The translations under genes were made by a program, and so were the position numbers. Under the pieces are notes generated by a model. That model worked only from the letters and a program-made list of their open reading frames with translations. It was not told the DNA's origin and made no database searches. Shown here one piece after another: positions 1-25,340 of a stretch of 64,000 bases of DNA. The stretch comes from an uncultured Clostridia bacterium. GTDB lineage: Bacteria > Bacillota > Clostridia > Christensenellales > CAG-314. Within the stretch, counting starts at the first letter, position 1, and the number at the start of each line of letters is the position of its first letter. The stretch lies in contig CAKQEP010000002.1 in the NCBI GenBank assembly GCA_934230325.1, forward strand, positions 3,797 through 67,796, given 5' to 3'.

Positions 1-3000
1 AGTATGGCCAAAAGCGTACGCCCCTATCTCCTGCACATTGGGAGAAAGTTCTACTTCTTTTAATGCGTAACAATTGTAAAAAGAATAATTCGCCAACGAC
101 AGTTTCGGAGAAGTCGCATTACCTTCAAAGGTCAGCGACGTCATTCTGTAACAGTTGTAAAATGCGTACGGCTCAATCACTTCCAACCACTCGGGAATCG
201 TCACGGACGTAACGTCGTAATATCCGGCAAATACCCTTTCCCCTATAGTTTTTATGCCGATAGGAATCTTAACGTCCTTGCTCGTGCCTTGCGGTATCCA
301 AACAAGACGCGTTCCTCTGTCGGAGCAAACCATGTTGTCTTTTGCCATGTACTCTCCGCTATCGTCGGCAAAGGTTACTTCGCTGATGTAGTAACACGAC
401 GTTATTCTGGTGTAATCAAAATCCGTAAGACGCGACGGCAACACCAACTTTGTCAATTCGGGAATATAATGTATTCCTTTTTCTTCTATTACGAGATTTT
501 CTGCCGTTTCGCCTGCTTTTGCGTCAAGAAATTCTATCTTTGTGATGTTGTAGTTGAAACAAATACTGTATGTGGTTATCGTCGTCACGGTGGACGGTAT
601 AAACAGTTCGTTAAGTTTCACCATGAAAAAGCCTCTGCGACCTATCGAAGTAACTTTCCACGTTGCTTTTTGAACTGCGCTTTCCTCTTCCCCTATCTTG
701 ACGTCAAATGTGGACGGAATTGTGTAAGTAAAAGCCTCGCGAGCAGGTGTGTATCCTTTGAGTTCCGCATACACCGTTTCTCCGTCGGTGGACTGCCCTT
801 TTTTGTGATACAATACGCCGTCGCAAGAAGCGTACATTCTCTCGTGATTGCCTATGGCATAATAAACGTTTATATCCGTCAAATTTGTGCAGGAATAAAA
901 TGCGCTGCCTGCATTATTGATGCCGTTGATTCCCGTTTCTATGTACTGTACCGTGTCGGGTATGTTAACGACTTTCATAGTGGTAACATTGCTAAACGCA
1001 CCGCCTTCTATTATCTCGACAAGTTTGCCGTCGTACATCGACGGTACGGTCACTTCCGACAAATATTTTATGCCGTCGTAATGCCCCGTAATAGAGTAGT
1101 TTCCGTTTGCAAGTTTGTAAAACTCAAATACGTCTACCCATTTTGCCAACAAAGTAGTTTCTTTTGGCGTTGTCCAGTTGTCAATTCCTTTGCCGGTGTA
1201 GTCGGTCAAAAGTTTGCCGTCGACGTCCATCCAACCGGCAAACGCCATTACGTTGTTTTTGTCTTTGGGTACTGGGAAAGCAAAGTTGCTGTCGTAGGTG
1301 ACTTCAACTATATTTTCACCGTCCATAACGCCGCCTTCAAAACTCAAAGTGACGTTGTATTTGTTTGCCGTCCACTGCGCGTAAAGTTTGAGGTCTTGCG
1401 CCGTTTCCAACGTGGTACTGCTATACTCGGTGCCGCCCGTAGTGTCCGACCAGTGACGGAACGTGTAGCCCAACCTTGTTACGTCGGCGGGAAACGCTAT
1501 CTTGTCGCCTACCGCCGCATACGCTTTGGTGTATACTGCGTTAGGTTCGAAGTTGGTGTACATAACTATTTCGTATGCTTTTACCGTTATCTTTTCCGAA
1601 CCCATCTTTGTGGCTTTGTTGTAGTAAACGACTTCGATTTCGTTTTCCTTTTGGGTGAGCGTTATCTCTTTGCTTATACCGTTGATTTTGCCCATAGATT
1701 TGCCGTTGAGTATAACTTCGTACTCCGTCGCGCCAAATACTATAGCCCACCTTACCGTGTTGTTGCTGTACGTTACTTTGTCTTTTAAAGAGGGTGAGAA
1801 AGTAATAACGTCGCTGTACAACGAGTCGTTTGCGGTGTTGGAAGATACTGCTTTTATGCTGACTTCTACGGCGTCGCCCGTCAATGTAACTTGAGAGAAA
1901 GGTAACGAGTTGGTAGACGTTTCGTATTCCTTATCCCCTATCTTGACTATGTACTTTGTCGCGCCTTCTATTTTTTCCCAAGTCAATGCGTCGCCTTTTA
2001 CTTCAAAGGTTGAGTTTTTGGGAGTCGCTATCTTGGTTTTGGTGTAGACAAACTCTTCCGATTCCGAAGGATTGTAGCCTTTTGCGGTGGCTCTTATTTT
2101 TATCTTGATTTCGCCTGCGGGATATTCCTTTAAAGAACCGATATTACTCAAATCTACGTAATCTCCGCCGTTTATGCTAACGGCGTATGCCTTTGCATGC
2201 TCTACTTTTTCAATAGATATTTCTTCTTTATCGTTTACCGACAACTTGCTAACGGCGTCCAACCTTCTGTTTAAGTTAAACTTTGCAGAAGCAGAAGTAA
2301 GGTATCCTCTCGCCGCCGCTTTGACGGTGAAGTTTATGCCGCTTTCTCTCATCTCGCAATCGCTGAAGTCAAAGTAGGTACGATAACCTATCTCTTGGTC
2401 GGTATATTGAGCAATGTGCTCGTGCGTTTCGTTGCCGCACTCTACCGTGACTATGTAAGTTTCAGCATTACGAACAGGCTCGAACTCAAGCATAAAGTCG
2501 TTTTCTGTGTTTATTTTGAATATGCTTACTCTGTCAAGCGCTTTATTTCTATAATAAGCCGTGCCTTTGGCATTGTTGCTTACTACCACTTCTACTCTGT
2601 ACTCTCCCGCAGGTTTATCTGCAAGATTGTGTCTTGTTTCGTACACTCCGGTAAAAGTGTTGTCCAAAAGTTTATTGTTGTTAGAATCGTAAATAGTTAC
2701 TTTATAACTTACCGAAAGACCTTTGTTTTCCCAACGTACCGTTTCGGAATCGATAGATACTGCGGGCGTTGAGTCCTTAAATACCGCAAACAAGGTAAGG
2801 TTTTGTCCTATTGCTTGGTCGGTATACTGACATGTCAGTTTGGTTGCGTCTTCGTAATCGCTCATCCACCAACCTAAAAACTCTTTGCCGTCTTGAACTG
2901 CTGTGGGTAAATTCTCTATTATTCCCGCTTTGTTGGTAGTCTGCGGCTTTATGGGATTTTTGCTACCTTCAAACGATACGGTGTAAGTAGCAAGTGCGGG

Positions 3001-3543
3001 GTCTACAAACTTGGCGTATATAGTTACGTCGCCTTTGACCGCCACTCCGAATTTGTAAGGAACTTTAAATCCGCCGTCTGCGTACCAGCCCGTGAATATC
3101 TGTCCCGCTTTGGTGGGTTGCGGCGGCTCGGTAAGTACGGCGTTTTCCGCTATGTACTTTGACGGTACGCCCGTTGTTCCTTCCGCTTTGTACGTTACCT
3201 TGTATATCTTTCCTTTTTTACAAACGTAAGTGTTTCCGTCCGCTTTTAAGGTAATAACGCCTTCTGCGTACGTTCCCGTCATTTCCTTACCTTCCAGCGT
3301 AAACGTAAACTCTCCGTTTTTCTTGTTGAAAGTATACGTGCCTGTCTTGTCCCCGCTTATCTCTTTAAGCGTGAACCCTTCCTGCGTCAGTATAAACCCT
3401 TTGGTCATACCGCCGTCTTCGTAGTAGTATTCCGTATACGCTTCGTCGGGTATCTTATACTTTTTGCAACCGACAAATGCCATTACCGACGCTAATACTA
3501 TAAGTACTAACAATACTACCGTCATAAGCCTTTTCTGTTTCAT
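1..3543 (-). CDS. Large cell-surface lipoprotein, partial (C-terminus lies beyond window start)
   Basis: Manual minus-strand translation. ATG at 3543 with GGAGG 8 nt upstream. N-terminus MKQKRLMTVVLLVLIVLASVMAFVGC is a signal peptide plus lipobox Cys. Frame spot-checked open at 3420-3543, 1960-2040, 1320-1520 and 1-100, and in phase with base 1. Listeria-Bacteroides-type repeats (GYTFRHWSD...DLKLYAQW). Fn3-like modules (TWEKIEGATKY). C-terminal BspA-type LRRs (FYNCYALKEVELSPNVQEIGAYAF). Absent from the ORF track because no stop lies in the window. Confidence 0.85.
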   Translation of the reverse strand, partial: MKQKRLMTVVLLVLIVLASVMAFVGCKKYKIPDEAYTEYYYEDGGMTKGFILTQEGFTLKEISGDKTGTYTFNKKNGEFTFTLEGKEMTGTYAEGVITLKADGNTYVCKKGKIYKVTYKAEGTTGVPSKYIAENAVLTEPPQPTKAGQIFTGWYADGGFKVPYKFGVAVKGDVTIYAKFVDPALATYTVSFEGSKNPIKPQTTNKAGIIENLPTAVQDGKEFLGWWMSDYEDATKLTCQYTDQAIGQNLTLFAVFKDSTPAVSIDSETVRWENKGLSVSYKVTIYDSNNNKLLDNTFTGVYETRHNLADKPAGEYRVEVVVSNNAKGTAYYRNKALDRVSIFKINTENDFMLEFEPVRNAETYIVTVECGNETHEHIAQYTDQEIGYRTYFDFSDCEMRESGINFTVKAAARGYLTSASAKFNLNRRLDAVSKLSVNDKEEISIEKVEHAKAYAVSINGGDYVDLSNIGSLKEYPAGEIKIKIRATAKGYNPSESEEFVYTKTKIATPKNSTFEVKGDALTWEKIEGATKYIVKIGDKEYETSTNSLPFSQVTLTGDAVEVSIKAVSSNTANDSLYSDVITFSPSLKDKVTYSNNTVRWAIVFGATEYEVILNGKSMGKINGISKEITLTQKENEIEVVYYNKATKMGSEKITVKAYEIVMYTNFEPNAVYTKAYAAVGDKIAFPADVTRLGYTFRHWSDTTGGTEYSSTTLETAQDLKLYAQWTANKYNVTLSFEGGVMDGENIVEVTYDSNFAFPVPKDKNNVMAFAGWMDVDGKLLTDYTGKGIDNWTTPKETTLLAKWVDVFEFYKLANGNYSITGHYDGIKYLSEVTVPSMYDGKLVEIIEGGAFSNVTTMKVVNIPDTVQYIETGINGINNAGSAFYSCTNLTDINVYYAIGNHERMYASCDGVLYHKKGQSTDGETVYAELKGYTPAREAFTYTIPSTFDVKIGEEESAVQKATWKVTSIGRRGFFMVKLNELFIPSTVTTITTYSICFNYNITKIEFLDAKAGETAENLVIEEKGIHYIPELTKLVLPSRLTDFDYTRITSCYYISEVTFADDSGEYMAKDNMVCSDRGTRLVWIPQGTSKDVKIPIGIKTIGERVFAGYYDVTSVTIPEWLEVIEPYAFYNCYRMTSLTFEGNATSPKLSLANYSFYNCYALKEVELSPNVQEIGAYAFGHT

Positions 3544-3577
3544 CCGATTTACCTCCTTTTGGTAATTCTTTATTTAT

Positions 3578-3649
3578 TACTTTTGCGCTTGTAAATACTT
3601 TTAAACATCTACCAACTTTGTCTATTTGGTATCTACTTTTACGCTTGTA
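3578..3649 (-). promoter_or_regulatory. Pair of 16-nt direct repeats (TACAAGCG[C/T]AAAAGTA on minus strand) upstream of the lipoprotein gene
   Basis: 3578-3593 and 3634-3649 differ at one base, 56 bp apart. The proximal copy overlaps a TTTACA -35-like hexamer. Confidence 0.3.
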
Positions 3650-16931: not shown

Positions 16932-18020
16932 TTACCTCCTCATGTTTTGCAAAAATATATCAAACAGATACCCGCTGTCTTCCGGACCTGCAGCGCTTTC
17001 GGGGTGATACTGAACGGAAAAAACGTTGTCCTCTTTGCTCGCCAAACCTTCTACCGTGCCGTCAAGCAAATTGAGATGTGTGACGGATAATCCCGTGCCG
17101 CTCAACGACTTTAAGTCTACGGCATAACTGTGGTTTTGAGAAGTGATTTCTACCTTGCCCGTCGCGAGATTTTTGACGGGGTGATTGCCTCCCCTGTGAC
17201 CGAATTTGAGTTTGTACGTTTTTGCGCCGTACGCCAAAGCAATGGTTTGATGCCCTAAACATATACCGAATATCGGCAATTTTCCGCGTAGGCTTTTTAT
17301 TAAATCCACCACCGTCGTAACGTCTTGCGGATTGCCCGGTCCGTTGGACAAAAACAATCCGTCGGGATTTGTCGCTAACACGTCGGCGGCAGTGGCGTCG
17401 TAGGGCAAAAGCGTTACGTCGCAACCGCGCGCGTTTAAACAACGTATTATATTTAGTTTAATTCCGCAATCTATCGCCGCAACTTTAAACTCCGCCGTCG
17501 TCGTTGTAGACGGAAAAAATTTGGCGGTTTTTACGCTTACCTGCGAAACCAAATCGCGGGGTACAGGGTTTGCTTTTATCTTTGCCAAAGCGTCTTTTTT
17601 TGCGGTGTGTACGGAAGTGATTATGCCTTCTCTGCTACCGAAACTGCGTATGCTTCTCGCAAGTTTTCTCGTGTCTATGCCTTCTATGGCGGGTATGCCG
17701 TACTCTTTCAGTTTGTCGGAAAGATTTTTGCCGCTCCTAAAATTTGACGGACGAGGATTGTATTCCCCTACGATAAGACCGCCTATCGACGGAGTGTCCG
17801 TTTCGTCGTCAAAATCGTTTATCCCGTAATTTCCTATCAACGGATAGGTCATGACTACCGCTTGCCCCGTATAAGACGGGTCGGAAACAATTTCCTGATA
17901 TCCGACCATACTCGTATTAAATACTACCTCGCATACGCGCTCGACGTCCGCGCCGAAACCATAACCTACATACTCGCTACCGTCTTCTAAAACAAGTTTT
18001 TTGTCTGCAAGTCTTGCCAT
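16932..18020 (-). CDS. carA: Carbamoyl-phosphate synthase small (glutaminase) subunit
   Basis: 362 aa. GICLGHQ glutamine amidotransferase active site. Confidence 0.95.
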
Positions 18021-19210
18021 ACTTTTTTACCTCCGTATACCGTCAAAATACATTTTCCGTAAAGTTCCTCGCCGTCAAAGGGCGTGCTTTTGCCTTTGGA
18101 TACAAATTCGCTTGCGTCGACTTTAAACGGAGCGCCGACGTCCCATACGCAAAAATCTTGCTTTGACAACGGTATATCAAAACGCTGTCGCGGATTGCGG
18201 CTCATCAACTCAACCAAACGATTGAGCGACAAAAATCCCGAGCGCACAAGTTTTGTGTACAATGCCGCAAAAGACGTTTCCAACCCGACGATACCAAACG
18301 CGCTGTCTTTTAAACCGCGCGATTTTTCCTCTTGAGAGTGCGGTGCGTGGTCGGTTGCAATCATATCTATTGTTCCGTCGGCAACTCCTTCGCGCAATGC
18401 CGTCATATCTTCTCGAGAACGCAACGGCGGATTCATTTTAAACCGACCGTCCTCTTTTATGTCCTCGTCGCAAAACACAAGGTAATGCGGAGCAGTTTCG
18501 CAAGTAACGTCGACGCCTTCCCTTTTTGCCTGCCTTATCAAATCGACGCTTTCCTTTGTCGAAACGTGGCAAACGTGGTATTTTGCGCCCGTTTCCCGCA
18601 CCAAAGCAAGGTCGCGCGCAACGGCTTTGTACTCGCTCGCGCTGCAAATTCCTTTGTGGCCGTGCGATTTTGCGTATTTGCCGTCATGAATAAATCCGCC
18701 GTCAATCAGGGAATCGTCTTCGCAGTGCGCCGCAACGATTTTGTTTAACGATTTTGCTTTTTTTAGCGCGGCGCGCATAGTTTCTTGGTCGTTAACGCCT
18801 TTGCCGTCATCGGAAAACGCGCATACGTATCTGCTTATTGCGTCCATATCCGACAATTCGCGCCCGTTTTGACCTTTGGTAATCGCTCCGTACGGAACGA
18901 CTTTTATCAATGCGTCTTTGCTTATCGCGTCAAGTTGAATTTTTAGATTTTCAAAACTGTCGGGAACGGGGTTGACGTTGGGCATCGAACATATTGCGGT
19001 AAAACCTCCCCGCGCGGCGGCTCGACTCCCCGACGCAATGCTTTCCTTATAAACAAAACCCGGCTCTCTCAAATGAACGTGAACGTCACAAAGGCCGGGT
19101 GTAATAATAAAATTTTTGTATACGACGGGCAATACGCCTCCGTTGCGTTCAAAATGCGCCGCCAAAGTGTGCAAAAAACCGTATTCGGAAGTGCTTTTAT
19201 CAAACTGCAT
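17987..19210 (-). CDS. pyrC: Dihydroorotase
   Basis: ATG 19210 with AAGGAGG 5 nt upstream. DVHVHLREPG motif. The track start 19321 would run through the PyrR leader. Confidence 0.9.
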   Translation of the reverse strand: MQFDKSTSEYGFLHTLAAHFERNGGVLPVVYKNFIITPGLCDVHVHLREPGFVYKESIASGSRAAARGGFTAICSMPNVNPVPDSFENLKIQLDAISKDALIKVVPYGAITKGQNGRELSDMDAISRYVCAFSDDGKGVNDQETMRAALKKAKSLNKIVAAHCEDDSLIDGGFIHDGKYAKSHGHKGICSASEYKAVARDLALVRETGAKYHVCHVSTKESVDLIRQAKREGVDVTCETAPHYLVFCDEDIKEDGRFKMNPPLRSREDMTALREGVADGTIDMIATDHAPHSQEEKSRGLKDSAFGIVGLETSFAALYTKLVRSGFLSLNRLVELMSRNPRQRFDIPLSKQDFCVWDVGAPFKVDASEFVSKGKSTPFDGEELYGKCILTVYGGKKVWQDLQTKNLF

Positions 19211-19345
19211 GGATTGCCTCCTTAAACAAAAAAATCTTGCCGAAACCGACAAGATTGTAGCAAAAGCAATCACAAAATAATTTGCTAAAAAATGCTTATT
19301 CCGTTGCAATCTTGACGGCATCTCTGTACCGACTTAAAAATCGTA
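19211..19345 (-). promoter_or_regulatory. PyrR-binding attenuator in the pyrC operon leader
   Basis: Minus strand carries CGGUA-CAGAGA-UGCCG followed by UCAAGAUUG. CAAGAUUG can pair with CAAUCUUG, the 5' arm of terminator AUCUUGUC..GGCAAGAU (19233-19254) plus U7, giving an antiterminator/terminator alternative. Confidence 0.75.
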
Positions 19346-19350
19346 ACTAT

Positions 19351-19379
19351 ATTTTAGCACGCCCGAGTGTTTCTGTCAA
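19351..19379 (-). promoter_or_regulatory. Promoter TTGACA-17-TAAAAT for the pyr operon
   Basis: Minus-strand TTGACA at 19379-19374 and TAAAAT at 19356-19351. Confidence 0.65.
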
Positions 19380-19520
19380 CGGTTTTGACAAGATAAAAAT
19401 ATTCAATCGCAACAATCGTCGCAAATATGCGGCTTTTTAAAAAAATCAATAAACAATCTAAAAAAACAGCCTTAAAACGATTGATTTTTTTTTGATTATA
19501 GTATATGATATTACGGCTGA

Positions 19521-19596
19521 CGAGGCGTAGCGCAGATGGTAGCGCGCATGGTTCGGGACCATGAGGTCGTGGGTTCAAATCCCGTCGCCTCGACCA
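19521..19596 (+). tRNA. tRNA-Pro (anticodon CGG), CCA encoded
   Basis: Manual cloverleaf fold. Acceptor CGAGGCG/CGCCUCG (C1:G72, as typical for bacterial tRNA-Pro). D arm GCGC-AGAUGGUA-GCGC. Anticodon arm CAUGG-UUCGGGA-CCAUG. T arm GUGGG-UUCAAAU-CCCGU. 76 nt. Confidence 0.9.
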
Positions 19597-19629
19597 CAGC
19601 CGACTTCACTATTGGTCGGTACACAAAAA

Positions 19630-19656
19630 GACTTGCTCAATCGCAAGTCCTTTTTT
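19630..19656 (+). terminator. Terminator downstream of tRNA-Pro
   Basis: GACTTGC-TCAATC-GCAAGTC followed by a T6 run, flanked by an A-run (bidirectional). Identical copies at 19919-19945 and 20310-20336. Confidence 0.75.
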
Positions 19657-19758
19657 GTATACCTTCCCTTTTGCTCGTCGGCTTTCACCTTTATCGGCGT
19701 GATTAAAACGCTTTTGTGACGCTCGCTTTGCTCGCTATTCCGTCGCTTGCGCTCCTTA

Positions 19759-19779
19759 CAAATCCCGTCGCCTCGACCA
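19759..19779 (+). other. 21-nt copy of the tRNA-Pro 3' end (CAAATCCCGTCGCCTCGACCA), att-core-like
   Basis: Identical to 19576-19596. Confidence 0.9.
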
Positions 19780-20149
19780 GCGTCGCGGCAAAGCGATTTT
19801 TGCAAAAGACTGTCTTTCAGACGGTCTTTTTGCTTTTACGCTTGCCGCTCCTTTTCCCAAAAAGTTTTACAACTTTTTGGGGTCCCCTTTTTTATCGCTA
19901 TTGGTCGGTACACAAAAAGACTTGCTCAATCGCAAGTCCTTTTTTGTATACCTTCCCTTTTGCTCGTCGACTTGTATAATAATCTAATGTATTCCTAATT
20001 AAAACCGTTAAAATGCTTGCATTTTGACGGAGAGGAGCAGCCCGCTGTAGGGCGTAGGCGGCATATGAATATATGCCGACAAGCCTTTGGGCGGTGATGC
20101 GACGATGTGACGCTCGCTTTGCTCACTATTCCGTCGCTTGCGCTTCTTA

Positions 20150-20170
20150 CAAATCCCGTCGCCTCGACCA
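20150..20170 (+). other. 21-nt copy of the tRNA-Pro 3' end, att-core-like
   Basis: Identical to 19576-19596. Confidence 0.9.
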
Positions 20171-20385
20171 GCGTCGCAGCAAAGCGATTTTTGCAAAAGA
20201 CTGTCTTTCAGACGGTCTTTTTGCTTTTACGCTTGCCGCTCCTTTTCCCAAAAAGTTTTACAACTTTTTGGGTTCCCCTTTTTTATCGCTATTGGTCGGT
20301 ACACAAAAAGACTTGCTCAATCGCAAGTCCTTTTTTGTATACCTTCCCCTTTGCTCGTCGGCTTGTATAATAATCTAATGTATTT

Positions 20386-20421
20386 CTAATTAAAACCGTC
20401 AAAATGCTTGCATTTTGACGG
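20386..20421 (-). terminator. Terminator for the fused ABC transporter gene (inside repeat copy 2)
   Basis: Palindrome CCGTCAAAATGC/GCATTTTGACGG (20396-20421), followed on the minus strand by TTTTAATTA. Copy 1 has the same hairpin with one wobble pair. Confidence 0.6.
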
Positions 20422-20536
20422 AGAGGAGCAGCCCGCTGTAGGGCGTAGGCGGCATATGAATATATGTCGACAAGCCTTTGGGCGGTGCTGCGACGATGTG
20501 ACGCGTTTGCGGGCGGTCAACACAATGCTAACCGTA

Positions 20537-23374
20537 TTATCTATTTTTGATTGCGTCGATGGGTTTTTTGCGGGCTATTCTCAACACGGGGATAAAACTT
20601 GCGAAAAGCGCGGTTGCTACGCACCCCAAAAGAATAATGCCGATTTGTCTAACGCTATAACTCAACAAGGTTATCGGCAATCCGTACGACGCTCTTAATG
20701 CGGAATTAGTTACGGCAACCGCAACGCCGCTCCCTATCGTCGCAAGCGCAAAAACGATAAGCGCGATAACGAGCGCTTCGTTAAAGAATATGCCGAAAAC
20801 GTCGCCCGAACGCGCGCCGACGGCTCTCAAAATACCTATTTCGCGTTTTTTGTACGTCACCGAAGCCGAGATATAGGTCATAAACAATATGACCGCAAAC
20901 ACAAATACGCCCATACCGACGTACAACAAAATTTTTGCGATGGTTTTGATAAGCGAACCTATCATGCTTTCTGCCGATACGACGTAGTTTACAAGCGAAT
21001 ACTTAACGCCGTTTTCGCTTTTTGTCGAGAACTCGACGATTTTTTCAAGGTCGGGTTTAGAAAGTTTTTCGCCCGATATTGCCATTGCGTATTTGCCGAC
21101 GGGCGCGGCGGCTATTGCGGTTGCGAGTTGCTCCGACACGCCGATAAAACTTTTGTTTACGTCGTCGTTTTCAAAGAAAAATCCTTTTATCAAAACGGTT
21201 TTTTCAAGGTAAGGAGTTATGCTCCCGCCGCACGACATTTTTATTTTTGCGTCTTTGACGAGCGGTTTTATCGTGTTTTTAATTTCGTCCGCGTTTGCGA
21301 CGTCAACGGTCAGATTATCAAGCTTTTCGACAATGGTTTCATCGTTGTAATATACGTTTTTTAACGCATTTATAAGCGTTTTGATACCAAGAACTATTTC
21401 GTCGTCCGCAAGCGTCGTTTTGCCGTCGTCAAAATACACTGCGTCGGAATAATCTTTTGACGTAAAATAGTAATTGTAGTTGCTGCCGAAAAACATTCCG
21501 ATGGATTTGCCGTTTATTTCTTTACATTCCAAACTCGCCCTATCGCTAATTTCCCCGCCTACGCCTTTGTAGGAAAGGTATTCGTCGATAAAATTTTTGC
21601 CCGCAAAAAGCATTCCCGAAAACGCGCTGTTGTGTTCGCTCGCAAACTGCTCTTGCAACATATAGTAGTCGAGCGCGTCGTCGCTGTTTATGGTTTTGTC
21701 AAGAATAGCGTATCTCGAGTAATTATAACCCGTTTTTACTACGCCGACGATTTTGAATACGCCGTTAATCGCGCTTCCTTCGATTTTGACGTTTGGCTCT
21801 TTTGCGATAAAATCTTTGACGGACTTTATGTCGGACGCTTCTATATTTTTGCTTTCGTCGGGGGTACCCGCCAAATCAACGTGGCTATATCCTGCTTTTT
21901 TAAAACAATCGAACGCATAGTCGCTTATCGCGATTTCGTTGTTTGCGGAAGGCAACCGCCCCGCTTCTAACGTAAGGTTGTGTTTGTTTAGCGCGTCGTT
22001 GTCCAACTCGACGATACCGACGACGTTTCCGTTGTAAATATTGCTTTTTGCGTCTTTTAAAAAACTTGCGGAAATGCTTGCGCCGCTACCTAAATATCCG
22101 CCGTTTTTTTCTGCAAGCACGGGCAAAAAGTCAAGCCCCGTTTTGTTTTTTAATTGTTGAATATCGTCGTCGGAAAATCTTTTTTCTATAAAATAATCCT
22201 CGTCGTAACCGCCGAATACTACCATTTTTTTAAAGTTGACGTACTTTATGCCGCTGTCGTACATTGAGTTTACAATTGCGGTTTTGCTGTCGTATGCGGC
22301 AAAACTATCGACGATACCAAACATCGCAAAGCATGCAAAACATAAAAATATCGTTACGACAAGCCTGAACGGCTTTGTTTTCATACCGCTTACGCCGATT
22401 TTGAAACTTTCCTTTACCGGTAGGCGCGATTTGATAAGTTTAAACGGTTTTTTGTCCGATACCGTTATCGCGCTTTCGTCGGTGGGAGAAAACAACTCCA
22501 TCTTGCCGTCTTTGTCGATATGCGACGCGGATTTTACGTCGGAATTAACTTTTTTGTCAAGAGATAAAAACGCCTCGTCCTTTTGTAGATAGGCGTTGAT
22601 ACGCTTTACGTCGTCGGCGGTCAACTTGTACCCCACAGGAAAACGCAAAAGTTTACCGTTGTAGTTTTGCGCGCCGCCGCTTTCGACTTCGGCGTCGATG
22701 CGATGCTTTTCTATGTCGGAAATAACCGCGCCGTCCTTAAACTCTATTACCCTGTCGCCGTATTCTTCGGCAAACTCGCGGTCGTGCGATACCACTATGA
22801 CAAGTTTGTCCTTTGACAGTTTTTTGAGCGTGTCAAAAACCTGTATTCCCGTTTTGCTGTCAAGTGCGCCGGTCGGCTCGTCCGCCATAATTATTTCGGG
22901 GTTTTTTACGAGCGCCCTTGCTATTGCGACGCGCTGTTTTTGTCCGCCCGACAATTCGTTGGGTTTTCTTTTGCCGTAGCCCGATAGCCCTACTTCGTCC
23001 AAAATTGCGTTGATTTTTTGGTCGGTTGCCTTTTCTCCCTGAAGTTTAAGCGCAAGCGCGATATTTGCGCCGACGTTGAAGTCTTCTAAAATGTTGTATT
23101 CCTGAAAAATAAATCCGAGATACGTGTTGCGATAACTGTCAAAATCCCCAGCGGAAAAATCTTTTGACGATTTGCCTTTTATTATTATTTCGCCGCTGTC
23201 CGCATTGTCCAAACCGCCCATAACGTTTAAAAGCGTGGACTTTCCGCTACCCGATTTTCCGAGAACAAACACCAGCCCACTTTCCGGAAACTTTAAACTT
23301 ACGTTGTCGAGAGCCTTTACTACGCCGCCTTTTTTGGGGCGGTAAGTTTTAACGATGTTTTTAATCTCAATCAT
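20537..23374 (-). CDS. Fused ABC transporter: ATP-binding domain plus MacB/FtsX-type permease
   Basis: ATG 23374 with GGAG RBS. Walker A GKSGSGKST, signature LSGGQKQR. Long extracytoplasmic domain and C-terminal FtsX-like TM bundle. Confidence 0.9.
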   Translation of the reverse strand: MIEIKNIVKTYRPKKGGVVKALDNVSLKFPESGLVFVLGKSGSGKSTLLNVMGGLDNADSGEIIIKGKSSKDFSAGDFDSYRNTYLGFIFQEYNILEDFNVGANIALALKLQGEKATDQKINAILDEVGLSGYGKRKPNELSGGQKQRVAIARALVKNPEIIMADEPTGALDSKTGIQVFDTLKKLSKDKLVIVVSHDREFAEEYGDRVIEFKDGAVISDIEKHRIDAEVESGGAQNYNGKLLRFPVGYKLTADDVKRINAYLQKDEAFLSLDKKVNSDVKSASHIDKDGKMELFSPTDESAITVSDKKPFKLIKSRLPVKESFKIGVSGMKTKPFRLVVTIFLCFACFAMFGIVDSFAAYDSKTAIVNSMYDSGIKYVNFKKMVVFGGYDEDYFIEKRFSDDDIQQLKNKTGLDFLPVLAEKNGGYLGSGASISASFLKDAKSNIYNGNVVGIVELDNDALNKHNLTLEAGRLPSANNEIAISDYAFDCFKKAGYSHVDLAGTPDESKNIEASDIKSVKDFIAKEPNVKIEGSAINGVFKIVGVVKTGYNYSRYAILDKTINSDDALDYYMLQEQFASEHNSAFSGMLFAGKNFIDEYLSYKGVGGEISDRASLECKEINGKSIGMFFGSNYNYYFTSKDYSDAVYFDDGKTTLADDEIVLGIKTLINALKNVYYNDETIVEKLDNLTVDVANADEIKNTIKPLVKDAKIKMSCGGSITPYLEKTVLIKGFFFENDDVNKSFIGVSEQLATAIAAAPVGKYAMAISGEKLSKPDLEKIVEFSTKSENGVKYSLVNYVVSAESMIGSLIKTIAKILLYVGMGVFVFAVILFMTYISASVTYKKREIGILRAVGARSGDVFGIFFNEALVIALIVFALATIGSGVAVAVTNSALRASYGLPITLLSYSVRQIGIILLGCVATALFASFIPVLRIARKKPIDAIKNR

Positions 23375-23441
23375 AACCACTCCTGTCTGCTGTCCTAAAT
23401 TACGATAAAACCGTTTGAACAGTCATAAAATTATTGTTTTT

Positions 23442-25340
23442 TTAAGCATATTCAAGCCATTTTTCCATCAATGCGTTCAACTCCGCGTCGGCTTTGTCGG
23501 CAAGGCTTTTTATTTCCGCATATTTTTTGTAATCGACAAGTACGTCGGGAGCAAGCATTTGATTGTTTAAGTCCTCTATCTCCCGTTCCTTTGCGGCAAT
23601 TTCCTTTTCCAAATTGTTTTTTGTCGCTTTGTCCGCTCGCGCCTGCTTTTTGTTGACGTTTTGCTTGACGGATTGCGAACGTTGCCGTTCTCCGTCGTCG
23701 GACGGTTTGTTTGCCGCTTTTTCCTTTTCTTTCGCTTTTAAGTAGTCGTCGTAATTGCCTTCGTAAACAAAAATTCCGCCGTCGCGTATCTCGGCAATTC
23801 TGTTTGGCACTTTTTTTAACAAGTACCTGTCGTGCGTGACCAAAAGCAGCGTTCCTTTAAAATCGGACAGCGCGTTGTCAAGCCCTTCCAAACCTTTAAA
23901 ATCGAGATGATTTGTCGGCTCGTCCAAGACAAGCACGTTGGCGCGTTGCCGCATAAGCAAAGCAAACTGAACTTTGCTGCGGGTTGCGCCGGACAACTCG
24001 CCTATCTTTTTAAACACGCCGTCGTCGGTCAACTGAACTCTCGCCAAAAGGCTACGCACGTCGTATTGCGACGCGAGCGGCATTTTGTCACAAACTTCGT
24101 CGTAAACGGTGCGATTAAGGTTTAAGTTTTGATTTTCCTGCGCAAAATACGCCGTTTTTACTCCGCCGCCCCAGTTTACGCTACCAAAAAAAGGAATTTC
24201 TCGCAAAATCGCGCGCAAAAAACTCGTTTTGCCTGCGCCGTTAAGTCCGACAAAAGCAACTTTGTCACCGCGCGTCACGCTAAAAGAAACGTTGTCAAAA
24301 AGTTGTTTGTCACCGAGTTTAAGGGAAAATTTTTTGACCGTCAAAACGTCTTTGACGGGTTCTTGGTCAAAATCGAAGTTTACGACAAAATCTTTTGGCG
24401 GCGGCGCGACTTTTTTGATGCGCTCCATTTTTTCCAACGCTTTGACTCTACTGCCAACGCTGTTTGTACTTGCCGAAGCCGCAAGATTTTTGCGGACAAA
24501 CTCCTCCATTTTGGATATTTCTTCCTGCTGTTTTTCGTATTGCTTTCGCTGTAAATCCAACTCGGATTGTCGCAAAACGAGAAATTTTTTGTACCCGCCG
24601 TTGTAACTATGCAATTCGCCGTTTCGTACTTCTGTGATTTTATTAGTAATTTTATCCAAAAAGTATCTGTCGTGCGATACCACGACTATCGCGCCTTTAA
24701 AATCGGCAAGATATTTTTCCAGCCAGTCGCGCGTAACAAAGTCGAGGTGGTTTGTCGGCTCGTCCAACAACAATACGTCGGGGTTTAGGCACAACAATTT
24801 TGCCAGCGCAAACCGAGTTTTTTCTCCGCCGCTGAGTTTGTCTACGCCGCAGGAAAGGTCTTTGTCGGCAAATCCCATACCGTACAAAACTTTTTTTATG
24901 TTTGTTTCTACGTTGTAGCCGTCAATGCTTTCGTAATACGCCGTTTGCTTGTTCAACTCTGCCGCAATACTCTTGTATTGCGACGAGTTTTCCTCCAAAC
25001 TCAAAATTTTTTGCTGAAAATCTCGTATACGTATTGCAGTTTCGTCGACATTTTTAAAGCTACTGCGAATTTCCTCGTACAAACTCAAACTGCCGTCAAG
25101 CCGCTCGACCTGCCGCAAATATCCTATTTTGATATCCTTTTTTACGTATCTCGCGCTTTCTCCGTTTTTGGGATCGACGTCAAAATCGCCGCCGTACAAA
25201 ATATCCAACAAAGTCGTTTTGCCCGCGCCGTTTACTCCGACTACGCCGATACGATCCCCTTCCTCTACCGAAAAATCCGCATGCGACAAAACTACGTTGT
25301 CCTTAAAAGATTTAGTTACGTTTTTTAATCCGAGCAACAT
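23442..25340 (-). CDS. ABC-F family ATPase (two ABC domains, no TM, K/E-rich coiled-coil tail)
   Basis: GVNGAGKTT and GLNGAGKTS Walker A motifs. LSGGEKTR and LSGATRSK signatures. Confidence 0.9.
   Translation of the reverse strand: MLLGLKNVTKSFKDNVVLSHADFSVEEGDRIGVVGVNGAGKTTLLDILYGGDFDVDPKNGESARYVKKDIKIGYLRQVERLDGSLSLYEEIRSSFKNVDETAIRIRDFQQKILSLEENSSQYKSIAAELNKQTAYYESIDGYNVETNIKKVLYGMGFADKDLSCGVDKLSGGEKTRFALAKLLCLNPDVLLLDEPTNHLDFVTRDWLEKYLADFKGAIVVVSHDRYFLDKITNKITEVRNGELHSYNGGYKKFLVLRQSELDLQRKQYEKQQEEISKMEEFVRKNLAASASTNSVGSRVKALEKMERIKKVAPPPKDFVVNFDFDQEPVKDVLTVKKFSLKLGDKQLFDNVSFSVTRGDKVAFVGLNGAGKTSFLRAILREIPFFGSVNWGGGVKTAYFAQENQNLNLNRTVYDEVCDKMPLASQYDVRSLLARVQLTDDGVFKKIGELSGATRSKVQFALLMRQRANVLVLDEPTNHLDFKGLEGLDNALSDFKGTLLLVTHDRYLLKKVPNRIAEIRDGGIFVYEGNYDDYLKAKEKEKAANKPSDDGERQRSQSVKQNVNKKQARADKATKNNLEKEIAAKEREIEDLNNQMLAPDVLVDYKKYAEIKSLADKADAELNALMEKWLEYA

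Follow-up and report, generated by a model that had tools for sequence, protein, structure and literature searches.

A tandem array of gene-less units with copied tRNA ends behind the tRNA-Pro(CGG) gene of an uncultured Clostridia bacterium

The tRNA-Pro(CGG) gene in a 64,000-nucleotide stretch of DNA from an uncultured Clostridia bacterium (GenBank assembly GCA_934230325.1, contig CAKQEP010000002.1, positions 3,797 to 67,796; the whole stretch is called the window below) is followed directly by a tandem array of gene-less units, each of which carries an exact copy of the last 21 nucleotides (nt) of that tRNA. The question raised by this locus is how such a structure arises; i.e. whether remnants of integrative elements, a family of small-RNA genes, a local duplication of an ordinary spacer, an assembly error or some other process accounts for it. 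On balance the feature is probably a tRNA-linked repeat array, built of gene-less modules that insert at tRNA 3' ends and are later amplified by unequal recombination. The units appear to belong to a dispersed family whose members immediately follow several tRNA genes in this species of gut Clostridia.

The array behind tRNA-Pro(CGG)

The array begins 1 nt past the CCA of tRNA-Pro on the same strand (Table 1), and each of its units is delimited by 21-nt direct repeats of the tRNA end. The repeated 21-mer CAAATCCCGTCGCCTCGACCA, labelled A, runs from C56 of the T-loop to the CCA, and each of the two free copies, A2 and A3, agrees with the tRNA's own copy, A1, at 21/21 nt, as the original prediction had read from the letters alone. 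No further match was found in the 64-kb window with up to 3 mismatches allowed, and 100 shuffles yielded 0. Tandem Repeats Finder reports one tandem array at 19715-20504 with a period of 391, 2.0 copies, 97% matches and 0% indels. Compared position by position, unit 1 (19715-20105) and unit 2 (20106-20496) differ by exactly 10 substitutions and 0 indels, where a manual alignment had earlier given about ten substitutions and no indels.

The remaining parts of the array are labelled B, a 79-nt block whose three copies are 97% identical; C, the 44 nt before each free A, which always abuts the 21-mer directly; "115", the hairpin-rich stretch after each free A; and "132", the stretch between B and C. 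The terminator block had been described as occurring three times with a length of 76 nt; the count stands and the length becomes 79 nt. With these labels the layout reads tRNA..A-9-B-30-C-A-115-B-132-C-A-115-B-132-C(8 nt), and the unit may be described as a gene-less mosaic of A, the "115" hairpin/terminator, the B terminator, a spacer of either 30 nt or "132", and the constant 44-nt C. The short first module, which gives an A1-to-A2 spacing of 183, is a unit with the "115" hairpin cut down to 9 nt, and a homologue of its 9-B-30-C order is found behind tRNA-Val(CAC) on contig L126.

The richness in hairpins that had been predicted for the units is borne out, T1, the palindrome, the B terminator and hairpins 1 and 2 all having been mapped. 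A consensus scan finds 7 terminator-like sites on the plus strand and 1 on the minus strand, compared with 2.3 +/- 2.0 in shuffles; 6 of the 7 plus-strand sites lie between tRNA-Pro and the convergent ABC gene, the seventh (19418-19433) being upstream of the tRNA. Hairpin 1 of the second "132" (20396-20421) reads as a minus-strand terminator for the ABC gene, and in the same scan hairpin 1 of the last unit is the sole terminator-like site behind that gene. The present role of the array is probably, at the least, that of a stack of intrinsic-terminator-like hairpins, acting in both directions between the convergent tRNA-Pro and ABC units. A promoter-like TTGATT-17-TATGAT is located ahead of tRNA-Pro (19481-19509). 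Inside the units the TATAAT reported earlier is found at 19975 and 20366, together with the 3-codon ATG open reading frame (ORF) visible in the sequence, and a promoter scan of the units found no sigma-70 -35/-10 pairs. Folded as RNA, 19974-20225 is predicted to be unusually stable (z-score -4.1), and an Rfam scan of 17000-24000 (judged by E-value) returned only tRNA, PyrR and one chance miRNA match, with no family for the units. Coding by the units was considered and rejected, as the first reading had also held: the ORFs cross terminators, and their frame is not kept among relatives.

Searches for exact matches to the proteins of the flanking genes found metagenome contigs of the same species from other samples. 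Among them L002 (Hadza) agrees with the window at 100% over 20700-19805 and L004 at 99.7% over 20001-19100, and L001 and L003 carry an allele that is 289 bp shorter, in which B0 and B1 are merged and one A-115 stretch is missing. Because independent metagenome contigs reproduce it, the array is real rather than a product of assembly, and strains differ in it. In contigs L165 and L166 the sequence breaks off 113 nt beyond the stop codon of the ABC gene, as would be expected where short-read assembly meets the repeat. Two Logan contigs of the same species, L005 and L006, end inside tRNA-Pro at window position 19556, i.e. 20 nt short of the 21-mer, which suggests that a longer stretch of the tRNA may recur at another place in those genomes. 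A comparison by way of ABC homologues, sought for an empty site, led to 77-78% relatives that lie in a ClpB neighbourhood with no tRNA-Pro nearby, and pyrC or this ABC gene was found at 0/119 of the clade loci described below.

The same modules at other tRNA genes and in related genomes

Sister loci were sought with a spurious 101-amino-acid ORF that gene callers place across the unit. The probe led to contigs from the same cohorts in which the modules follow tRNA-Val(CAC) (L126/L127), tRNA-Val(TAC) (L170) and tRNA-Leu(CAG) (L171/L172), with layouts given in Table 1. Their C, "115", B and "132" segments are 80-97% identical to those of the window; e.g. the "115" of the window and the one behind tRNA-Val(TAC) in L170 are 96.8% identical. 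In each sister locus the A segment consists of the final 21 nt of the tRNA at that locus and not of the proline 21-mer, and when the longest suffix of the tRNA to recur downstream was sought automatically, it measured exactly 21 nt in the window and in L001, L126, L170, L171 and L172. At all four tRNAs CGCTCCTTA stands before the free copy and GCGTCGC.GC.AAGCGA after it, and within each tRNA the 21-mer is preceded by GGTT. Since the junction is always at C56 and the copy is always that of the local tRNA, the 21-mer is supplied locally and not by the module. Comparison of L126 with L127 at one tRNA-Val(CAC) further shows a module of ~160 nt plus a spare 21-mer present in L126 and absent from L127. 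A "115"-B' cassette also lies in L173 (4080-4260) without any tRNA-end copy, directly after an operon of a helix-turn-helix protein, a C5-methylase and an NgoFVII-type restriction enzyme; the unit thus consists in part of a terminator cassette of a generic, dispersed kind.

When species-representative genomes were scanned with the 21-mer, 119 loci were found, all in metagenome-assembled genomes (MAGs) of uncultured Clostridia including Ca. Scatosoma, Ca. Gallimonas and Pumilibacteraceae. At 42 of these 119 tRNA-Pro loci, a count that includes a few copies at the very start of the locus that are probably truncated tRNAs, there are copies of the 21-mer that ARAGORN puts at no tRNA end. Some free copies lie by tyrosine integrases or at the edges of defence-gene islands, and most lie in gene-less modules of two fixed sizes, ~200 and ~250 nt. 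A PF00589 tyrosine integrase (L013 5767-6618) lies 25 nt from a free 21-mer, an integrase homologue stands just behind the tRNA in L094 (442-1863) and another is held in L072 (1-618). By Pfam, genes for a VWA protein, a protein kinase and PP2C adjoin the free copy in L026, and the gene for a type I restriction R subunit does so in L099; L035 has ORFs that resemble those of L026 by size and order alone. In these integrase-type or island-edge copies the sequence shared with the tRNA begins at T54, and the flanks are unrelated to those of the window. The tRNA-Pro(CGG) end is thus used by true integrative elements in related MAGs and is a real integration hotspot.

The class 1 modules lie ~200 nt from the tRNA and are gene-less, with a structured element of ~150 nt between tRNA-Pro and the free 21-mer; they match no Rfam family and have no conserved protein neighbour. 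Their five-helix fold is 95.5% paired, with 11 pairs changed on both sides, values reached by 0/500 shuffles, and slid controls gave <=3 such pairs. One hairpin carries a GNRA loop, and nt 1-12 of the 21-mer find their complement in the 5' strand CGACGGGATTTG. A side observation concerns L043, in which ~2950-3604 (on the reverse complement of the stored locus) reads as a tmRNA by its 5' GGGGCTG and 3' GCAGCTCCACCA, ARAGORN making no call. This putative tmRNA is followed by a class-1-like module that ends in the last 21 nt of the tmRNA, and the 5' segment of that module is switched to complement the tmRNA end (CTGC-ata-GGGGACTTG). Beyond the module in L043 come a homologue of the window's "115" hairpin and then an inverted C-like segment.

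The gene-less class 2 modules measure ~250 nt from the preceding 21-mer, whether that of the tRNA or a free copy. They consist, in order, of a promoter-like TTGCGY-17-TAAWWW, a hairpin, an invariant AAGAGGAGC, GCGACG, tRNA-Pro positions 30-76 and a terminator. The hairpin differs in sequence in each genus and keeps the same layout, with compensatory changes that preserve pairing. The AAGAGGAGC motif resembles a ribosome-binding site, yet no conserved ORF follows it. The "132" of the window is a homologue or derivative of the class 2 module. In L038 a C-like 45-nt insert is located at the T-loop of a partial tRNA-Pro copy; in the window species the partial-tRNA portion 5' of C appears to have been lost.

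The 391-bp unit did not turn up on phages or plasmids: a blastn comparison of 19597-20536 with these collections gave no match. Among viral contigs the 21-mer gave 0 matches, a 15-nt C motif chance matches only, and the class 1 scaffold motif 0, and a 20-nt "115" motif searched against JGI metagenomes gave 13 chance matches and no module.

The neighbours on both sides lie outside the repeat: to the left the pyrC-carAB operon, its genes identified by Pfam and preceded by the PyrR leader, and to the right the convergent ABC-FtsX gene, which forms the boundary of the array. ARAGORN's tRNA-Pyl(cta) call at 21936-22021 (+) was rejected as false; it falls within the 945-amino-acid ABC ORF, which is encoded on the other strand, and Rfam gives no tRNA match there. 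The same false call recurs at the same place in contig L001. In practical terms, arrays of this kind break short-read assemblies beside tRNA genes and create spurious ORFs and partial-tRNA calls.

Table 1. Coordinates of the array and its neighbours in the window, with the layouts of related loci
Feature	Location	Strand	Remarks
PyrR-binding leader of the pyrC-carA-carB operon	19224-19344	-	Rfam PyrR 52.3 bits, just below the gathering score of 54
tRNA-Pro(CGG), intact	19521-19596	+	ARAGORN; Rfam tRNA 66.3 bits
A1, the tRNA's own 21-mer	19576-19596	+	
Short first module, 9 nt + B0 + 30-nt spacer + C	19597-19758	+	with A1, a 183-nt unit
B0, 79-nt block with intrinsic terminator	19606-19684	+	stem 19630-19649 plus T run
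391-nt tandem	19715-20504	+	2.02 copies, 97.4% identical
C, constant 44-nt segment ending CGCTCCTTA	19715-19758	+	second copy 20106-20149
A2, free 21-mer copy	19759-19779	+	
"115", long hairpin with terminator T1 (19804-19830)	19780-19894	+	second copy 20171-20285
Palindrome CCCAAAAAGTTTTACAACTTTTTGGG within "115"	19855-19882		
B1	19895-19973	+	
"132" segment	19974-20105	+	second copy 20365-20496
"132" parts in order	19975-19980; 20005-20030; 20030-20041; 20060-20077		TATAAT; hairpin 1; GAGAGGAGCAGC; hairpin 2; then GCGACGA
A3, free 21-mer copy	20150-20170	+	
B2	20286-20364	+	
C, truncated third copy, 8 nt	20497-20504	+	
ABC ATPase-FtsX permease fusion gene, 945 amino acids	20537-23374	-	Pfam ABC_tran and FtsX
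tRNA-Val(CAC) array	L126		tRNA..A-9-B-30-C-A-115-B'
tRNA-Val(CAC) array	L127		same tRNA, directly then 115-B-spacer-C
tRNA-Val(TAC) array	L170		tRNA..A-115-B'-30-C-A-115-B'-132; last gene of a four-tRNA operon
tRNA-Leu(CAG) array	L171/L172		tRNA..A-9-B-132-C-A-T1
Class 1 loci	L038 2720-2888; L047, L055, L074, L081, L090 (twice), L096, L104, L106, L110, L114		
Class 2 loci	L016, L033, L062, L091, L110, L038		

Origin of the modules

The array was probably built in two steps. A module would have entered the T-loop/3' end of the tRNA gene by a site-specific process that left the tRNA intact and a spare tRNA end behind the insert; the process would either have duplicated a 21-bp target or have needed an identical 21-bp core. 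The array would then have expanded and contracted as its A, B and C repeats recombined unequally by homology, which would account for the 2.6% diverged 391-nt duplication as well as for the strain polymorphism of 289 bp. From C56 to A76 there are 21 nt in every tRNA, and a repeat that is always 21 nt and always local fits target duplication and equally fits a pre-existing matched core. A single crossover by a site-specific recombinase, inside or beside the core, that carries fixed arms to a new tRNA cannot account for the pattern, as one end would be foreign and the two ends unmatched. The same arms with matched 21-mers at four tRNAs therefore suggest either a target-copying process or a family whose cores have been repeatedly re-tailored.

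Other accounts of the locus have to be weighed against this one. It is scarcely credible that the true locus holds a single unit multiplied in assembly; short-read contigs do end at the repeat (L165/L166; L002, L004, L005, L006), but 10 positions differ between the units, L002 and L004 come from different samples and reproduce unit-specific bases across the overlapping parts, and contigs built at k=141 exceed the 79-nt and 21-nt repeats. Very improbable too is a plain tandem duplication of an ordinary tRNA/ABC spacer by unequal crossover or slippage, devoid of any significance for mobility or function. Recombination between 79-nt B blocks is expected to give just such a 391-nt tandem and 289-bp allele, and a duplication with its left end in the T-loop would yield a joint like that of C to the 21-mer; but that joint recurs at C56 of three other tRNAs, each with its own 21-mer, and in another genus (L038), and independent duplications would not share both breakpoints. 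Across these loci plain duplication is contradicted as the sole explanation and would survive only as the mechanism of copy-number change; this is also the part of the originally proposed unequal crossover that stands, the origin of the C-to-21-mer junction being the part that it does not explain. Classical attachment (att) scars, i.e. full-size tyrosine-integrase islands that repeatedly entered tRNA-Pro, each leaving a displaced 21-nt tRNA end, and that internal deletions cut down to their two arms, so that remnants like those of cis-mobilizable elements (CIMEs) accumulated by accretion, are an unlikely source. The hotspot at tRNA-Pro(CGG) in the clade, the integrase 25 nt from the free 21-mer of L013, the integrase homologues of L094 and L072, and the free copies that edge the VWA/kinase/PP2C genes of L026 and the type I restriction gene of L099 all speak for such scars, and partial-tRNA arrays from successive integrations are documented (bioRxiv 10.1101/2020.12.28.424599; PMC9897764). 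They are opposed by the four cores, each matching the local tRNA, borne by the same C and "115" arms, whose matched ends one crossover cannot give; by the unrelated flanks and T54 rather than C56 start of the integrase-linked copies; by the short, fixed size of all gene-less modules, none of which brackets a large element; and by the lack of a relative of the unit in the phages, plasmids and viral contigs searched. Of the first alternative originally offered, scars of integrase elements thus fit poorly, and a miniature non-autonomous element fits best, given a gene-less module that lies behind four tRNAs with the 21 nt of each and occurs as presence/absence alleles.

That the units are primarily small-RNA genes is a possible but doubtful explanation, and one compatible with a mobile origin. 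A "132"-C-21-mer transcript would end at T1, and its tRNA-like 3' end, taken over from the adjacent tRNA, would act as a signal for processing or stability. This reading is favoured by conservation of the "132" module across genera with hairpins that change and still pair and an invariant AGAGGAGC, by the promoter-like TTGCGY-17-TAAWWW of the relatives, by the fold of 19974-20225, and by the GNRA-capped hairpin and strong covariation of the sister class 1 module; the E. coli RrA/B/F repeats, moreover, are transcribed, processed just after the repeated end and able to bind Hfq and CsrA in vitro (PMC8144298). It is disfavoured by the lack of a canonical promoter inside the window units, where the TATAAT has no -35 partner, by the terminators ahead of each unit and by the lack of an Rfam match. 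Covariation equally fits a folded single DNA strand, and the need for the tail to match the local tRNA is left unexplained. The small-RNA family of the original prediction thus retains the cross-genus "132" conservation and the E. coli small-RNA analogues in its favour, and the absence of a canonical promoter in the window units counts against it.

The reading of the locus as inserted and then amplified tRNA-linked modules has its own difficulties. Assignment of the tRNA-Leu and tRNA-Val contigs to the same species as the window rests on their shared cohorts. In L127 (389-787) the tRNA-Val(CAC) array runs into C plus the tRNA-Leu(CAG) 21-mer, a junction due either to recombination between arrays at different loci or to a chimeric short-read contig. 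The last unit of each array is itself module-like, and a clean insert with native flank is seen nowhere; the loci compared likewise yielded no sign of movement, no junction left by excision, no circle and no empty site at tRNA-Pro. A repeat search and inspection found no terminal inverted repeats at the module ends, the left ends (GCGTCGGCT...) and right ends (...CGCTCCTTA) showing none on inspection, and the inverted complement of the 21-mer is represented in the window unit only by GCGACG, which is constant whatever the tRNA. No candidate moving enzyme emerged from the window ORFs, none of which matched an integrase from a related locus used as a phmmer probe, a weak test.

A bolder extension, rather doubtful at present, is that the modules represent gene-less mobile DNA of a novel type, able to recognise the universal T-arm of tRNA genes (GGTT before C56), to insert behind any such gene and to copy the 21 bp from C56 to CCA while the tRNA stays whole. 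Insertion of such DNA might proceed by a staggered cut, by a casposon/CRISPR-like reaction or under nucleic-acid guidance, with an enzyme encoded elsewhere, and the same principle would then have given rise to the tRNA-linked repeats of E. coli and to the class 1 modules with their covariation.

Comparison with known tRNA-associated repeats

Accretion of elements at tRNA and related genes is known from the Streptococcus CIMEs (PMC5704250), the Dehalococcoides ssrA islands (PMC3146451) and the Prochlorococcus tycheposons (bioRxiv 10.1101/2020.12.28.424599). As in CIMEs, DNA without an integrase lies between direct repeats of a tRNA 3' end in the window, tandem arrays form at one tRNA, and strains differ. 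However, CIMEs and accreted islands have one core per family, integrase-bearing relatives and genes, whereas the window family has constant arms, a core that changes with the tRNA (four cores) and units of 160-390 bp without genes, and no autonomous relative of its unit was found in phages, plasmids, viral contigs or the metagenome motif scan. Casposon and CRISPR integration offers a different likeness, with the tRNA-Pro 3' end as target, the T-loop region as "leader" and repeated insertion leading to arrays (PMC5137440); casposon insertion duplicates a segment of fixed length (15 bp), to which the 21-nt repeat would correspond if it is a target duplication. Casposons differ in having terminal inverted repeats, a Cas1 integrase and a polymerase, and in a duplication that overlaps the tRNA by 5 bp; the window modules have no inverted ends, and their 21-bp repeat lies wholly inside the tRNA.

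The closest precedent for the window array is the tRNA-linked repeats (TLRs) of E. coli, which the original prediction did not name and which are best regarded as an analogue and not a homologue (Egan & Landy 1978; Rudd 1999; Stenum et al. 2021, PMC8144298). [quoted passage not shown] In the tyrT-tyrV region (NC_000913) the tRNA-Tyr 19-mer occurs 6 times (two genes plus four free copies), and behind tyrV, with rttR/tpr, a 178-bp unit is repeated 3.1 (3.14) times. The units behind tyrT and tyrV (L174, NC_000913 1285500-1288500) contain GGGGAAGGAT, the inverted complement of the 19-mer; such a complement of the repeated end is thus found in the E. coli unit and in the class 1 modules but not in the window unit.

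Both systems consist of gene-less units right behind a tRNA gene, often in tandem and at several loci, and in both the unit ends in an exact copy of ~20 nt of the upstream tRNA end (21/21 nt, twice, in the window). Each locus matches its own upstream gene, the loci of the window family probably sharing one genome. They differ in sequence, to which the Rfam scan, with the E. coli repeat RNA included, gave no match in the window; in the copy, which is 21 nt from C56 in the window and 18-19 nt from ~A58 in E. coli; in the unit, which in the window reaches a greater length (183-391 nt) and combines into a mosaic terminator cassettes also found away from tRNAs (L173); and in the host, uncultured gut Clostridia as opposed to Enterobacteria. 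The Clostridia form is the easier to reason about, with constant flanks, a 21-mer that changes with the tRNA and a breakpoint always at C56, and the presence/absence and copy-number alleles between strains add to its tractability. What is new is comparative evidence that the tRNA-derived part is locally supplied, from which a mechanism of insertion may be proposed, and the origin of such repeats becomes answerable by complete genomes, simple PCR or RNA mapping. The same grammar as that of the E. coli TLRs, which were described in 1978 and whose origin and, for the most part, function are unexplained, is thus now found in an unrelated lineage of gut Clostridia.

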